Shown piece after piece: positions 1 to 19,399 of a stretch of 20,000 nucleotides of DNA (the first letter of the stretch is position 1; every line of letters begins with the position of its first letter). The notes beneath the pieces are model-generated. The model was given only the letters and a program-made list of their open reading frames with translations. It did no database searches and had not been told where the DNA came from. This DNA comes from an uncultured virus (IMG/VR IMGVR_UViG_3300007759_000001) (taxonomy: Duplodnaviria > Heunggongvirae > Uroviricota > Caudoviricetes), in the IMG/VR virus record IMGVR_UViG_3300007759_000001; one strand, written 5' to 3'. Made by a program: the position numbers and the translations under genes.

Positions 1-176
1 CGTCTGATCTTTACGACGAGGTGGAATGCGGCGCACCACGAACGGCGGTTCATGAGAACGGTTCCGATGGTTGGACTTGCGAAGCGGGTCATCATCATTG
101 GGAATACGGTTCTCCGATGCAGGCAGCCGAAGAAGCCGAAGAGGCTTGGGCAGAACGAGCCGGAATGGCTTGGTGA
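1..176 (+). CDS. 3' part of small hypothetical phage protein (…ECGAPR…WTCEAGHHHWEY…AERAGMAW*)
   Basis: Open frame from nt 3 to TGA 174-176, followed directly by a terminator; Cys/His motif. Confidence 0.7.
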   Translation, partial: SDLYDEVECGAPRTAVHENGSDGWTCEAGHHHWEYGSPMQAAEEAEEAWAERAGMAW

Positions 177-451: not shown

Positions 452-521
452 AGTATAGCACAAGGGTGAGGCAATGTCAAGTCTGATTCGACTTGACAGG
501 GGCTAGTGACTATGCTATAAT
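452..521. promoter_or_regulatory. Divergent sigmaA promoter pair
   Basis: Minus TTGACA(480-475)-17-TATACT(457-452); plus TTGACA(493-498)-17-TATAAT(516-521). Confidence 0.9.
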
Positions 522-547
522 ACTTGTAGTGGGAGAAAGTACCCCGC

Positions 548-3131: not shown

Positions 3132-3157
3132 GAAACCCCCCGAAAGGGGGGTTTCTT
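3132..3157. terminator. Terminator between convergent genes
   Basis: gaaacccccc-gaaa-ggggggtttc-tt then cgcgtc. Confidence 0.85.
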
Positions 3158-3168
3158 CGCGTCTGGGG

Positions 3169-3921
3169 TCAAACGGATTTAGGGCCATTCTGACCCCCCC
3201 CACCGTAGGTGTAGGTCACTTTGGGGGCTGGGACGGGCTTGGGGGGGCTGTACAAGGCTGTGACGGCATTCCACGCAACAGGTGTGACCCTTGTTTTCGA
3301 TGCGAGTTCCGCAAATCCATCCAACGACATGTCTGCGCCACCGTAAACAACAATGTTTCGGTGCTCATTTCGGGGATAACCGTACGGCAAACGTACCCCG
3401 TTGCCTAGTCCTTGCCCTGTTAGCACCAACTGTTTCGGGTTGACCTCCACTGTCGGTGCATCAACTACGTTGCATGCACCGATCAGTCCTTCTCGTACTT
3501 TGCGCGCCGGGAGTGGTTCCTCAAAAAATACCCACAGGTGGTAGCCTTTGGATCGGGAGCGTTCTATCCATGAAGTTACTTGAAGTTGTTGTAGTACAGT
3601 CTGGAGGTTGACGGCGTGGGCTAGTGAGGCTTCTTCGCCTTCGTCAAAGTCTACGCACCCCCATTGGGTGACGTAGACGGCTGCGTCGTCTTCGGTGTTG
3701 TGTCGTGTCAACGGGTAAACACCGATGTTGGGTTTGTCTGCGTTGGTGAGGTGGTCTTCAACAGCCGTTGTGTAGCCTGCTCCTGTTGCTTTGTGCCATC
3801 CTCCGGCAGGGTTTTCCCATGGGCGAAACCCTTTATTGTCCGTGGGGTCGTCGGTGGCGATGTGTCCGCCTGCGAATAGGGCGGCGAACAGGTTTATTGT
3901 GTGGCGTGAGACATCTTCCAT
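3169..3921 (-). CDS. Archaeo-eukaryotic primase (AEP) superfamily primase/polymerase domain, possibly C-terminally truncated
   Basis: Motifs IGVYPL, WGCVDFD (DxD), ERSRSKGYHLWVFF (SxxGxH), EVNPKQ, GNGVRLP. Confidence 0.8.
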   Translation of the reverse strand: MEDVSRHTINLFAALFAGGHIATDDPTDNKGFRPWENPAGGWHKATGAGYTTAVEDHLTNADKPNIGVYPLTRHNTEDDAAVYVTQWGCVDFDEGEEASLAHAVNLQTVLQQLQVTSWIERSRSKGYHLWVFFEEPLPARKVREGLIGACNVVDAPTVEVNPKQLVLTGQGLGNGVRLPYGYPRNEHRNIVVYGGADMSLDGFAELASKTRVTPVAWNAVTALYSPPKPVPAPKVTYTYGGGGQNGPKSV

Positions 3922-5207: not shown

Positions 5208-5276
5208 AGTATAGCACACTGGTATGACAGTGTCAAATCGGGCTGACTTGACAATGTCACACAGGGGTGCTATAAT
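5208..5276. promoter_or_regulatory. Divergent sigmaA promoter pair
   Basis: Minus TTGACA(5236-5231)-17-TATACT(5213-5208); plus TTGACA(5248-5253)-17-TATAAT(5271-5276). Confidence 0.9.
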
Positions 5277-9221: not shown

Positions 9222-9290
9222 AGTATAGCACATGGGTGAGACAATGTCAAATCGGGCTGACTTGACAGTGTCACACCCGGCGTGTATACT
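9222..9290. promoter_or_regulatory. Divergent sigmaA promoter pair
   Basis: Minus TTGACA(9250-9245)-17-TATACT; plus TTGACA(9262-9267)-17-TATACT(9285-9290). Confidence 0.9.
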
Positions 9291-9343
9291 TGTGGTTAGT
9301 GGATGGGACAAGCCATCCCTTGACAACAGAATAAGGAGACATC

Positions 9344-9583
9344 ATGACCCGCAAGGATTATGAAGCCTTCGCTACAATCGTAAAGGATCTCAACGAGTTC
9401 CGGTTCGATACGGCGATGGTACTGGTTGCCGCAAAGATGGCAGCCGTGTTCGCAGCCGATAACGAGCGCTTTGACGCTCTGCGGTGGTACAACGCCTGTG
9501 GCGTTGACGGCGAACTGGCCGTGCGACTTCTTCGGATTGAGGAAGGCCACGGCGCAACGGCTCACCACCCGGTGAGCCTGTAA
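9344..9583 (+). CDS. 79-aa small phage protein (MTRKDY…DNERFD…NACG pattern)
   Basis: Cassette leader and SD AAGGAG; hairpin 9595-9618 downstream. Confidence 0.85.
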   Translation: MTRKDYEAFATIVKDLNEFRFDTAMVLVAAKMAAVFAADNERFDALRWYNACGVDGELAVRLLRIEEGHGATAHHPVSL

Positions 9584-9616
9584 GACGCAAGTCGGTGGGG
9601 GGCTACGGCCCCCCAC

Positions 9617-9645
9617 TTGACAAGCAGGCACCGGTATGCTATACT
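9617..9645 (+). promoter_or_regulatory. sigmaA promoter for the mini-tmRNA
   Basis: TTGACA(9617-9622)-17-TATACT(9640-9645). Confidence 0.9.
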
Positions 9646-9658
9646 AGTGCCAAGCACC

Positions 9659-9740
9659 GGGGGTGATCGGTGTAGACGGAAGTGAAAGCCGCATGTCGGA
9701 ACGCTTTCGGACCGGAGTTCGATTCTCCGCACCTCCACGA
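9659..9740 (+). ncRNA. Mini-tmRNA: tRNA-like domain of tmRNA without the mRNA-like domain
   Basis: Acceptor GGGGGUG/CACCUCC with G3:U70 and A73; D-loop analogue AUCGGUGUAGAC; helix GGAAGUG/CGCUUUC; GGAC; T-arm CGGAG-UUCGAUU-CUCCG; terminator 9769-9796. Confidence 0.8.
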
Positions 9741-9850
9741 AGTTGTCAACACGGCAATCGCCGGACAGAACCCCTGACCAATCGGTTGGGGGTTTTGTCG
9801 CGTACCCGTTTAGCCCCGGCCTCCCGAGGCGGGGAAGCCCCGAAAAATAA

Positions 9851-9899
9851 CTAAAAAAAACGGGACGGTCCGAGTTGGTTCTAAAAAAACGGGACGGTC
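9851..9899 (+). repeat. Direct repeat CT(A)nCGGGACGGTC x2
   Basis: Copies at 9851-9870 and 9881-9899; core AACGGGACGG also near 13031, 18318 and 19118. Confidence 0.7.
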
Positions 9900-9963
9900 G
9901 GGGGTTTGGGTCGGATCGGGTGTGGTTGCGGTGTCTATGTAATAAGAAGGCAAATGCGGTGAT

Positions 9964-9977
9964 CGAACACATGTTCT
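9964..9977. promoter_or_regulatory. LexA (SOS) box
   Basis: TCGAAC-ACAT-GTTCTA directly followed by TGTCACACC. Confidence 0.6.
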
Positions 9978-10008
9978 ATGTCACACCGGTAGGGATGGTC
10001 TTGGTGAT

Positions 10009-10137
10009 CTGAGCCAATGCTGCGACTGTGGCGAATGGACGGACATTGAGCCGTGCTACACCATAGACGAAACGCCGGACGGGGCGCTTTGCCCTGAGTG
10101 CGACCCGACGGACCACGACAAGGTCTACCCGGTCTGA
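10009..10137 (+). pseudogene. Zn-finger-like ORF remnant (…QCCDCGEW…LCPECDP…YPV*) with no ATG/GTG start
   Basis: CxxC…CxxC frame ending at TGA 10135-10137 before a UUCG hairpin; no in-frame canonical start after TAA 9943. Confidence 0.4.
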
Positions 10138-10310
10138 TCTGGTGGGACTTCGGTCCCCCCCTGACTAGACCGACTTGACAACTGTCATACCCGTATGCTA
10201 TACTACGGGTCTAACGTAAACGCTCGTTATCTACGGGCACCGAATAAGGGTCGGATCAGACCCCCATTCGGTGTCTTAGGGGTAACGGCTAACATAGGAA
10301 AGAGAAGGAC

Positions 10311-13377: not shown

Positions 13378-13611
13378 ATGTACGACGGAAAGAGCAACGA
13401 GGGATCGTGGCTTGACTATCACCAGTTCACCAGCGTGGGGCAGGCATTGCGCCAACTCATGGACTTCGTTGAGTTCGGTGAGGACAATGACGGCCAGATC
13501 GTCATCTACACCAACCTCACGTTTCAGGAGAGCAACGGTCGCGGCGAGATTCGCAACGGAGTTCATACCAGCGAGAGAATCGTTGACATGGACACGTTGG
13601 AGCGAGTCTGA
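13378..13611 (+). CDS. 77-aa protein with EDNDGQIVIYT motif
   Basis: SD AAGGAG. Confidence 0.85.
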   Translation: MYDGKSNEGSWLDYHQFTSVGQALRQLMDFVEFGEDNDGQIVIYTNLTFQESNGRGEIRNGVHTSERIVDMDTLERV

Positions 13612-13753
13612 TCCGACTGTCACACCCGGCTGCTAGACTTGTTTCTAGCAAGTCGGGGGTGACTCCACTTGTGCTGATGCTGCCGACTTGACAGCGTCAC
13701 ACACATGTGCTATACTGCATATGTACCAACCAACAACTCATAGGAGACATACT

Positions 13754-14479
13754 ATGACAAACGAAAACCTACCCCAGTGCTGGCAGGACTACAACGATGT
13801 TCTGGCAGCAGGGATCGACAGGATCATCCTGTTCGGCCCACCGGGGACCGGCAAGACATTCGCCGGACTCAACATGGGCGATACGGACTCCGGTTCGTGG
13901 CGTCTCGTCTGCACAGAAGACATGACTAACTTTGACGTAACGGGAGGCTTCCTCCCCGGTCAGGACGGGTCATTCGACTGGAACGATGGATCGGCTATCA
14001 AGGCATGGCGTGGAAACGGCATCCGGGGTGGCAGGCTCGTCGTAGACGAGATTGACAAGGCAGGTGGCGATGTATTCGCAACCTTGCTTGCCATGACGGA
14101 TACCGTCGATTCGGCTAAGTGGGAGAACCCCGCGACTGGCCGGGTGGAAACGCCTAAGGACGGGTTCAGCGTTATCATGACAACGAACATTGAGAACATG
14201 GAGGAACTGCCTTCTGCTTTGAAGGACCGTTTCCCGTGTGCGATTCGTATCAACGAACCGCATCCCAATGCGTTGTTGAACCTGCCGACCAGCATTCGGG
14301 AATACGCCCGAAAGATGGCCGACGCGGGTGATCGCCGGATTAGCCTTCGCCAGTTCTACGCCTACGGACAGTTGGCGCGGAGCCACGGCGACGAGCGTGC
14401 TGCCAAACTGATCTTCGGATCACGGGCAGAAGCCTTCCTTGACGCTGTCAAGGTTGACACGGTCGGATCGGCTTCCTGA
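13754..14479 (+). CDS. MoxR-type / AAA_5 (CbbQ/CobS-like) AAA+ ATPase, 241 aa
   Basis: Walker A GPPGTGKT, Walker B LVVDEIDK, sensor-1 TTN, Arg finger ALKDRF; promoter 13688-13716; SD AGGAG. Confidence 0.9.
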   Translation: MTNENLPQCWQDYNDVLAAGIDRIILFGPPGTGKTFAGLNMGDTDSGSWRLVCTEDMTNFDVTGGFLPGQDGSFDWNDGSAIKAWRGNGIRGGRLVVDEIDKAGGDVFATLLAMTDTVDSAKWENPATGRVETPKDGFSVIMTTNIENMEELPSALKDRFPCAIRINEPHPNALLNLPTSIREYARKMADAGDRRISLRQFYAYGQLARSHGDERAAKLIFGSRAEAFLDAVKVDTVGSAS

Positions 14480-14601
14480 TCCCAGCGAGTGGTTGGTGGG
14501 TGCTTCGGCACCCCCAACCCTCGCCCACACTTGCCTGTCACACCCATGTGATAGGCTATGCAAAGCAAGTAAGCAAGTAACCAATCACGTTAGGAGACGA
14601 G

Positions 14602-16098
14602 ATGGAAACTATAGAACATAAGGATCTACGCCCCATGCCTGAACTAATCAGGCGTAGGGATGGAGCCAATGACGAACCTGCGGAGTGGGAGATTCACCCA
14701 TGCGCCGCGGAGCGTGGCCTACCCCGAACGGGTGTGCTACCTCGCACGATGATCGTGCCTGTTCAAGACTTTGAACTGGACCGTGTCATCAGGGCGCATG
14801 AGATGATGCACGCAAAGGTTTCACCCGGCGACAGGTCGGTATGGGTCAACAGGGGCATTTGCTCCGACCGGGCCATGATCTGTGCGGAGGAAGCCCGTGT
14901 GAACTTCCTAGTGAGCAAGGCTGGATTTGATCTGGACATTCTTGAGGATGGCACAGAGATGAATGCAGGCGAGCGCATCGCGGAACGCGGCGACTGGGCA
15001 GAGGCTGTTTACTTCACGGCCAGTGTTTCTGGCTGTGGGGGCTTGAACAAGTACCTCGTAGGCATCAGGCGACACCGACCGGGATGGGGACCACGACTCC
15101 GTCGTATCCATCAGTTGCTTCAAAAGGAACTGCGTCAACTGTCACGCACGAACCACACGAGTTTGTGTTCGACAATGACTAGTTCTGGCAGGCTTGACCC
15201 GGCCAACGAACTTATCGAAGGATTCTTTCATACAGAATCCATCGGAGAGTGGCTTGACCGACTGGCCAACCCCGAAACTGACGAGGACGAGAAGACCGAA
15301 GGCGATACCACAGCAGGCGACACCGAAGAAGGTGGCGACGAGGGTGGTGCTGGCGAGGTCGATACGGACTCCGAAGAAGAGGCACCTATCTCCAAAGAAG
15401 ACTTGGAGAACCAGAAGCCTGTTCGCAGCGACGAGGCTGGGTCTTGGTCACAGTTGAATGTGAAGAAGCAGAACCTCACCCGGCACGTTCCGGGTGGACT
15501 GGGGAAGCGTCGAATCGCATCCAACATGGGTCGCAACCCGCGTCGTGTTGGCCGGATGTTCACCGATCCGCAGAAGCGGATTTTTGATCGGAAGGTCAAG
15601 GGCAATGGAGGTGTCGTGCTTATCGACTACTCAGGCTCAATGGCTTTGTCAGAGAAGGATGTGTTGGACATTATGGATGCAGCCCCCGGTTGCACCGTAG
15701 CGTGCTACACAACCAACGACTTTGACAGGGACGGCAAAGCGAACTGCTGGATTTTGGGAGAGCGTGGTCGGATGACCACAGCGATTCCAGAGTCTCGCGG
15801 AGGCAACGGTGTCGATCATCCCGCATTGGTGTGGGCTGTGCAGCAGAAGCAGCGCAGGAACGCACCAGTCGTGTGGGTGACTGATGGCGGGGTGCTTGGT
15901 CCGGGTCAGGGCTACAGGGATCAGTTGGCGATGCAGTGCATCAAGACTGTCCAGAAGTCGAAGGTGCTTATCCGAAACGAGGTTTCGGATGCCGTCGAAC
16001 TTCTCCACGACTTGGCGACAGGGAAGCCTGTCAAGCAGTGGTGGCCTGCATGGTTCAGGCGGACCTACGAGAACCAGACCGGAACCAAACTGGTCTGA
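14602..16098 (+). CDS. vWA-domain partner of the MoxR ATPase with N-terminal HExxH metallopeptidase-like domain (CobT-like architecture)
   Basis: HEMMH…EEARVN, acidic linker, MIDAS DYSGS…VTDG; adjacent to the AAA+ gene. Confidence 0.85.
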   Translation: METIEHKDLRPMPELIRRRDGANDEPAEWEIHPCAAERGLPRTGVLPRTMIVPVQDFELDRVIRAHEMMHAKVSPGDRSVWVNRGICSDRAMICAEEARVNFLVSKAGFDLDILEDGTEMNAGERIAERGDWAEAVYFTASVSGCGGLNKYLVGIRRHRPGWGPRLRRIHQLLQKELRQLSRTNHTSLCSTMTSSGRLDPANELIEGFFHTESIGEWLDRLANPETDEDEKTEGDTTAGDTEEGGDEGGAGEVDTDSEEEAPISKEDLENQKPVRSDEAGSWSQLNVKKQNLTRHVPGGLGKRRIASNMGRNPRRVGRMFTDPQKRIFDRKVKGNGGVVLIDYSGSMALSEKDVLDIMDAAPGCTVACYTTNDFDRDGKANCWILGERGRMTTAIPESRGGNGVDHPALVWAVQQKQRRNAPVVWVTDGGVLGPGQGYRDQLAMQCIKTVQKSKVLIRNEVSDAVELLHDLATGKPVKQWWPAWFRRTYENQTGTKLV

Positions 16099-16206
16099 TT
16101 GGGTGGGGGGCGAAAGCCCCCCACTCCCCACTTGCCCGACTTGACAGAAGGGCTGACATGTGCTATACTGGTACATGTAAACATAACTAGCCAAAGGAGA
16201 CTAACT

Positions 16207-19098: not shown

Positions 19099-19399
19099 AC
19101 GCGTCCGGTGTAAAAGAAACGGGACGGTATCGGTTACGGTAAAGAAGCGGGGCGGCTTGCGGTGTTTGGTAAAGGCAAGCCCCGCTTTTGTTATGGTGAG
19201 GTTACGGTTGTCATGTTAGGACAAGCCCCGCCGTGCAACACTTGCGGTAGACATGCATGGTATAAGCAAGTCCCGGTGGGTGTTACGGTGGCGTTACAAA
19301 TGTAGTGTTTAGATAGAACTGTTTCGGCACACGGTATGCCTAAAAAGTTTTCGACCCTTTTTCTAGATAGCAGTAATAGCAAGGAAGTGGTCACCTCGG

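Follow-up and report, generated by a model that had tools for sequence, protein, structure and literature searches.

Nearly all bacteria carry out trans-translation, which is also a drug target. Natural reductions of its RNA, i.e., of tmRNA, to forms without a tag reading frame have been described from organelles and, in one case, from a phage. Jakobid mitochondria encode tag-less tmRNAs (Jacob et al. 2004 as cited in PMC3985003), and CDS-less forms of roughly 65 bp are given for the plastids of Mallomonadaceae (PMC11915505). For phages, a 'TLD only' tmRNA of Mycobacterium phage DS6A was listed by Hudson, Lau and Williams in 2014 (PMC4131195) and is repeated in the 2025 tmRNA database paper (PMC11915505). 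Both papers say, citing Mao et al. 2009, that such a tRNA-like-only molecule inhibits tmRNA in E. coli, perhaps via SmpB titration. A literature search for a described family of such phage RNAs returned only the DS6A statements. As far as these searches show, the phage form is in print as one example, DS6A, and the breadth of the family apparently is not.

Here, we study a further phage locus of this type within 20,000 nt of DNA from an uncultured virus (the window), which belongs to a viral contig of 53.9 kb. A first-pass annotation, made from the sequence alone, had described an 82-nt RNA at 9659-9740 as a phage-encoded mini-tmRNA and knew of no phage description of such a molecule, a point that the published DS6A listing (PMC4131195, PMC11915505) corrects.

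Parts and identity of the RNA

The RNA and its parts are as follows.

9659-9740, + strand: mini-tmRNA gene (tRNA-like domain only), 82 nt, based on RF00023, MFE fold and family covariation
9659-9665 with 9730-9736, + strand: acceptor stem, 7 bp, with G3:U70
9666-9677, + strand: D-loop analogue, 12 nt, unpaired, GG present, no D-stem, final letters GAC
9678-9684 / 9702-9708, + strand: helix P2a (GGAAGUG with CGCUUUC), 7 bp
9685-9701, + strand: nucleotides enclosed by P2a, 17 nt
9685-9688 / 9700-9701, + strand: internal loop AAAG / AA
9689-9691 / 9697-9699, + strand: helix P2b, CCG/CGG
9692-9696, + strand: loop CAUGU
9709-9712, + strand: GGAC linker
9713-9729, + strand: T-arm CGGAG-UUCGAUU-CUCCG, 5 bp with a 7-nt loop
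9737, + strand: discriminator A73
9738-9740, + strand: 3' trailer CGA, in place of CCA

All parts that had been listed for the 82-nt RNA were found where the first-pass annotation put them. This includes the 3' end, read as ACGA with CCA to be added, i.e., CCA is absent from the gene and the trailer is CGA. P2a is flanked by GAC and GGAC (9675-9684, 9702-9712) where a tRNA would have its anticodon arm. The word GCAUGUCG had been said to recall one of tmRNA. The Rfam tmRNA consensus and E. coli ssrA indeed have CAUGCCGAGG, which in both forms the 5' side of the helix around the mRNA-like domain, with GCAUGUA on its 3' side.

The Rfam tmRNA model RF00023 matches 9659-9740 on the + strand from end to end with 59.3 bits (E 3.5e-21, gathering score 47) and is the sole Rfam family above threshold within the 20-kb window. 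The alignment runs from model position 1 to 374 and jumps over 294 internal positions, and both the T-arm and the D-loop analogue are aligned with high posterior probability. That is, both model ends are covered, in accordance with the description as a tmRNA homologue that has the whole tRNA-like domain and no tag-coding domain. Our own covariance model R1 (see below) scores the window RNA with 88.3 bits, the window sequence being part of its seed. The MFE fold shows the same four helices as the homology model. Its energy is ordinary compared to shuffled sequences (z -0.78), such that the case rests on homology and covariation and not on thermodynamics.

Other readings of the locus were tried and rejected. 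ARAGORN reports 0 tRNA or tmRNA genes and no tag peptide for the window, and the tRNA model RF00005 has 0 matches at E<=0.01 across the whole 53.9-kb contig. A tRNA, including the tRNA-Ala cloverleaf that had been named as the competing fold, is ruled out by these two empty searches. The permuted (two-piece) tmRNA model RF04321 reaches 17.3 bits against a cut-off of 47. A complete tmRNA is incompatible with the 294 skipped model positions, the mere 17 nt enclosed by P2a and the missing tag peptide. With regard to protein coding, the overlapping ORFs 9562-9972 (- strand) and 9663-9854 (+ strand) have no Pfam or PHROG match at E<=0.01. At the level of sequence comparison, 9659-9740 is confirmed as a real phage gene for a tag-less tmRNA that consists of the tRNA-like domain only.

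A family of short forms in viral contigs

A blastn search with the locus against cultured phages gave only two weak hits, one of them in Streptomyces phage Alone3. The elements of the window, DS6A and Alone3 have the inner hairpin CCGCAYG(N)CGG in common. We thus scanned IMG/VR for a pattern of inner hairpin and T-loop in which the acceptor stem was left free, and obtained at least 119 loci. Among the 119 listed, 103 show the full architecture and 16 lack it, which disagrees with a one-off decayed ssrA, the outcome that had been named as fatal to the annotation. The loci yield 92 unique sequences, including one false positive (L046) that was removed before alignment. Although free in the pattern, G3:U70 is present in 90/92 and A73 in 91/92 of the unique sequences (one row being the false positive). 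The tail reads AC in 81/92, and CCA is encoded in 6/92. The window RNA aligns with the DS6A element and 91 viral homologues.

A second scan fixed only GGG, GG, AC, the T-loop and TCCA and left P2 and the inner hairpin free. It resulted in at least 117 loci, and 92 of the 117 listed form at least 6/7 acceptor pairs. The hairpin CCGCAYGCGG occurs in only 8 of these 117, i.e., the inner arm is variable in sequence. Model R1 was built from 12 first-scan sequences as seed with the structure supplied by hand. At E<=1e-9, R1 matches 58 of the 99 second-scan loci searched (L231-L248 were left out) as well as the window. In the resulting alignment, 96.3% of the cells pair, compared to 63.9% when shuffled and 43-51% with partners slid. 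Changes on both sides of a pair that preserve pairing are found for 17/22 pairs, distributed as 7/7 in P2, 4/5 in the T-stem and 4/7 in the acceptor. These values are to be read with the construction in mind, since the alignment was fitted to R1 and leans towards its structure, and the second pattern fixed GGG...TCCA (the first three acceptor pairs) and the T-loop. The alignment columns further show that the AAAR bulge is conserved and that the inner helix opens with two near-invariant C-G pairs, whereas its third pair covaries. The loop often reads CAYG, and C74 is found in 55/55.

Covarying short homologues in viral metagenomes, proposed along with the annotation as a check, are thus numerous and have the same short form. 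The covariation argues for selection on structure, and by these alignments 9659-9740 belongs, as a typical member, to a large phage family that mostly lacks annotation. When applied to 60 first-scan loci, ARAGORN called 0 of the minis as a short RNA. It placed tRNA genes within 300 nt at 20/60 loci, such that 40/60 stand alone. A 324-nt 'tmRNA' that it reported in L062 was rejected, as Rfam instead puts the short form at 286-368 (81.1 bits). The same locus carries a match to the Pistol ribozyme (RF02679, cut-off 34.5) at 474-535 (- strand, 51.9 bits), and another is found in L119 at 4-65 (+ strand, 51.4 bits). Both lie about 100-200 nt upstream of those minis that are most similar to that of the window. 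No Pistol ribozyme was found in the 20-kb window itself.

Transcription signals, surroundings and distribution

The following features surround the mini-tmRNA gene.

9594-9616, + strand: upstream GC-rich hairpin; fold of 9584-9625 with -28.2 kcal/mol, z -5.98, 0/200 shuffles as stable
9617-9645, + strand: promoter TTGACA-17-(TG)TATACT, 11/12 consensus matches, TG extension
9646-9658, + strand: 5' leader, about 6-8 nt past the inferred start, as judged from the distance between -10 box and G1
9764-9799, + strand: terminator-like hairpin, 16 bp, GC-rich core followed by UUUUGU, seen in the fold of 9741-9810
9800-10174, no strand: non-coding spacer, extending to the next promoter copy at 10175-10204

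The promoter ends 13 nt ahead of G1 (9659). The hairpin in front of it starts right after the stop codon (9581-9583) of ORF 9344-9583 and abuts the -35 box. Given its predicted fold, it is likely the terminator of this upstream ORF. On the other side, the hairpin at 9764-9799 follows about 25 nt past the 3' end of the mini-tmRNA, and the respective fold (9741-9810) has -35 kcal/mol (z -4.65, 0/200 shuffles as stable). A simple terminator scan of 9300-10100 reported no terminator. Thus, of the promoter and terminator originally assigned to the RNA, the former holds with 11/12 matches, while the latter is supported by folding and missed by the simple scan. With promoter and hairpin, the gene forms a unit of about 150 nt that stands by itself. 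The transcript would need RNase P for the 5' end as well as trimming and CCA addition for the 3' end.

The next promoter copy is found 558 nt downstream, ahead of the next gene. The promoter type of the mini-tmRNA is frequent: 23 sites with at least 11/12 matches are distributed over both strands of the window, and sites with at least 9/12 matches number 41 compared to 10.4 +/- 3.4 in shuffles. Copies recur every few hundred bases (e.g., 493-521, 5248-5276, 9262-9290, 10175-10204, 13688-13716), and several form divergent back-to-back pairs. The promoter-dense window looks like a hypervariable early region that uses host RNA polymerase, with the early timing being our reading of the promoters. 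The spacer after the mini-tmRNA also contains a 17-nt direct repeat, AAAAAAACGGGACGGTC, at 9854-9870 and 9883-9899, 29 nt apart. With 2 mismatches the repeat is seen again at 19115-19129, i.e., 3 matches compared to 0.07 expected. A 250-aa ORF on the minority strand of the window (3169-3921, - strand) encodes a TOTE-type archaeo-eukaryotic primase domain (PF22548, 61.4 bits). SmpB was not found in the 53.9-kb contig.

To assess the distribution outside of viruses, the first-scan motif was also searched in 596 Gb of bacterial genomes. From the 120 loci listed, 9 remain after a loose filter, and inspection confirms 3 as real, namely in two Actinomycetota MAGs and one Sideroxyarcus MAG. With only these 3 among the 120 bacterial loci listed, the family appears to be phage-specific.

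Neighbours were surveyed in 5-kb flanks of 82 of the 119 first-scan loci, of which 67 hold the mini, giving 2576 ORFs of at least 60 aa. There is no common partner protein, i.e., no cluster occurs in more than 12/67 mini loci. Recurring neighbours are lineage-specific: for instance, one lineage has a capsid module, another a T4 Rnl1-type RNA ligase plus a TROVE protein. In the former (12/67 loci), the mini sits within the structural module (e.g., L486 2873-4120, - strand; L515 3604-4926, + strand), where it ends a few bases from an upstream ORF of 280-440 aa and directly precedes a Phage_capsid_3 gene. This position suggests late expression in that lineage, unlike in the window. In the latter, Streptomyces-phage-like contigs carry the TROVE (Ro60-like) protein (L512 235-1854, + strand) and the RNA ligase (L509 1999-3171, - strand). 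This RNA quality-control/repair module lies beside the mini in 5/67 loci and is not present in the window.

Within the window's own lineage the gene is rare. Among 70 relatives identified via the AAA_5 ATPase gene, the RNA is found within 7 kb only in L369, which is 99% identical. Five complete relatives (about 155 kb) have 0/5 matches above the tmRNA cut-off, the best reaching 27.8 and 22.8 bits. Two of these genomes contain tRNA-like genes (L439 1501-1578 and L440 1501-1579, both - strand) that score 22-28 bits with the tmRNA model, are passed over by ARAGORN, and have the acceptor GCUGGAG/CUCCAGC without G3:U70 and a long extra arm. The absence from all five complete relatives implies that the lineage can dispense with the mini-tmRNA; by this distribution it is clearly an accessory gene that its lineage acquired. 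In the flanks of the AAA_5 relatives, homologues of the small genes at 7.5-13.6 kb are almost absent, so the insertion site is not definable. The gene thus appears as an accessory acquisition in a hypervariable, promoter-dense and presumably early region. In cultured phages, neither tblastn with the large protein 14602-16098 nor a search with the DNA of 13600-16200 gave a match. The window DNA occurs in marine/seawater DNA metagenomes, and among the sequencing runs listed none of those carrying it is an RNA run.

Proposed action and comparison with known systems

We consider it fairly probable that the window RNA is a functional phage gene whose product acts as an alanine-charged competitor of host tmRNA, leaves products untagged and thereby damps trans-translation. 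In this model, host RNA polymerase would make a short separate transcript from the stereotyped phage consensus promoter to the hairpin terminator. RNase P would remove the 5' leader, the 3' trailer would be trimmed and CCA added, and AlaRS would charge the RNA with alanine via G3:U70 and A73. Like the tRNA-like domain of tmRNA, the charged mini-tmRNA would then bind SmpB and EF-Tu of the host. It would thereby rival host tmRNA both for SmpB and for those ribosomes that have stalled on broken mRNAs. Since there is no resume codon or tag frame, the nascent chain is proposed to receive at most one alanine and no ssrA tag, such that host trans-translation, i.e., tagging and the coupled mRNA decay, would be damped during infection. 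The mechanism suggested at first, a decoy or a tag-less rescue, is an idea already in print and plausible for the window RNA.

The near-invariance of G3:U70, A73 and C74 speaks for a role of charging and hence for an action at the ribosome more than for mere sequestration of SmpB. A pure sponge, which would keep SmpB (alternatively AlaRS, EF-Tu or RNase R) away from the ribosome with aminoacylation being irrelevant, is in our view improbable: the near-invariance of G3:U70 (90/92) and A73 (91/92) where the search left them free, and the invariance of C74 (55/55), would hardly be expected unless charging and 3'-end processing were under selection. Charging may be unneeded for the published inhibition, in which case pure titration would leave the strict G3:U70 unexplained. 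The same conserved positions, which suggest that charging and ribosome entry are required, are shared with a helper role that we regard as unlikely, though less so than sequestration. Here, the phage would add a cheap tag-less rescue with the aim of freeing ribosomes on mRNAs that host RNases or abortive-infection nucleases cut during infection, rather than of blocking host tmRNA. Such a role has been proposed for the tag-less tmRNAs of jakobid mitochondria, tag-less organellar forms co-occur with SmpB (PMC11915505), and the window's gene sits among consensus promoters that host RNA polymerase should recognise in a presumably early region. Against it, a contig without SmpB implies that the RNA takes SmpB from the host and in this way competes with host tmRNA in any case, there is no evident way to resolve the peptidyl-RNA without a stop codon, and the published outcome in E. 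coli is inhibition (PMC4131195, PMC11915505).

Two further explanations place the RNA outside of trans-translation. The tRNA genes within 300 nt of 20/60 family loci, together with the T4 Rnl1-type RNA ligase and TROVE (Ro60-like) neighbours in Streptomyces-phage-like contigs, would fit a tRNA-like decoy or processing element, e.g., a nuclease bait, a competitor for RNase P or the CCA enzyme, or a substrate of RNA repair. We rate this as quite improbable, because the RNA keeps features that are specific to tmRNA and foreign to tRNAs (GAC/GGAC, P2a, the AAAR bulge, the CC/GG pairs of P2b), offers no anticodon loop to anticodon nucleases, and has the RNA-repair neighbours in only 5/67 loci and not in the window. 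Least credible of all is a dead remnant, i.e., a decayed ssrA copy or an attP piece left from integration into the host tmRNA gene. Phages commonly carry 3' pieces of the tmRNA gene as attachment sites (PMC11590407), and the phage scaffold L003 starts with the 3' part of a full tmRNA. In contrast, the window RNA has kept the two halves of the tRNA-like domain, which pair with each other, compensatory changes are seen across many loci, and the gene has its own promoter and terminator-like hairpin. An attP fragment of ssrA was also rejected by the lack of an integrase among 24 window ORFs scanned against Pfam, a scan that is not exhaustive for the window.

Extending the reading as an alanine-charged competitor to the whole family, we tentatively suggest that mini-tmRNAs could be a widespread, horizontally mobile phage counter-measure. 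Charged with alanine and borrowing host SmpB and EF-Tu, they might end translation untagged in stalled ribosomes and thus shield phage proteins and mRNAs from quality control and decay, or relieve jams caused by RNA-cutting defences. In this view, a functional contact in its own right, and not a deletion scar, would be formed by the AAAR bulge together with the CC/GG pairs of P2b and the CAYG loop. If true, trans-translation would be the target of a natural viral RNA of 80 nt, which would offer a compact tool and add a new facet to phage takeover. Mini-tmRNAs are common in viral metagenomes and present in cultured Streptomyces phages, and they are missed by ARAGORN. For the window, the gain is a correct annotation and one more family member, which, standing alone with its own promoter, is a clean candidate for synthesis and testing. 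Overall, the first-pass annotation is partly supported: its identity claim is right, its novelty claim is wrong, and its mechanism is plausible and had already been proposed in print.

The DS6A element (JN698994 28478-28560, tmRNA Website tmID 11587) is closest in kind. Like the window RNA, it is phage-borne and 82-83 nt long, with a G3:U70 acceptor, a D-loop analogue ending in GAC, a short P2, the inner hairpin CCGCAYGCGG, a T-arm with UUCGAUU, A73 and no encoded CCA, and both align to RF00023 positions 1-374 with the middle skipped. They differ in phage type and habitat (the window stems from a marine metagenome contig), in their RF00023 score (59.3 bits for the window RNA vs. 43.2 for DS6A) and in the linker, which is the canonical GGAC in the window RNA and a different one in DS6A. 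The Streptomyces phages LuckySocke, GiJojo, Alone3, pSt2308 and BRock carry members of the same family with the same inner hairpin. These phages have about 115 kb and carry the mini in tRNA clusters, unlike the window, where it stands alone. The Alone3 element (80 nt, in a tRNA cluster, unannotated) shares 82.8% identity with the window across 58 nt and matches RF00023 end to end with 36.8 bits. Records of cultured Streptomyces phages annotate an RNA at this place in 0/6 cases, with no feature in 5 and a hypothetical protein in 1. Two other unannotated tRNA-like matches flank the mini of Alone3 (L002): directly upstream, a full-model tRNA match spans 126 nt (2846-2971, 37.5 bits), i.e., a tRNA with an insert of about 50 nt, and downstream a partial match is found at 3132-3187 (29.2 bits).

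With E. coli K-12 ssrA, the window RNA shares the G3:U70 acceptor, the D-loop analogue, GAC/GGAC, P2a and the T-arm. In the same model, P2a of ssrA is followed by a GAAA bulge and then by a CC...GG helix, as in the window RNA. The mRNA-like domain of ssrA is closed by a helix of CAUGC (5') and GCAUG (3'), and the window's loop CAUGU corresponds to that junction. Compared to bacterial tmRNA, the window RNA lacks pseudoknot 1, the resume codon, the tag ORF and pseudoknots 2-4, and CCA is not encoded; without resume codon or tag ORF it cannot direct tagging. Since P2a, the bulge, the first pairs and the loop at the junction are kept, the short form equals a tmRNA minus everything inside the CAUGC/GCAUG helix. 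Both strands of this helix hold GCAUG, and a deletion between them would be a simple route to the short form. The tag-less organellar tmRNAs are likewise natural tmRNA homologues in which only the tRNA-like domain is left and a tag reading frame is missing. They are organelle genes within a reduced genome and work with imported SmpB, whereas the window RNA is a mobile viral accessory gene that, unlike them, would act in a host with its own full tmRNA.
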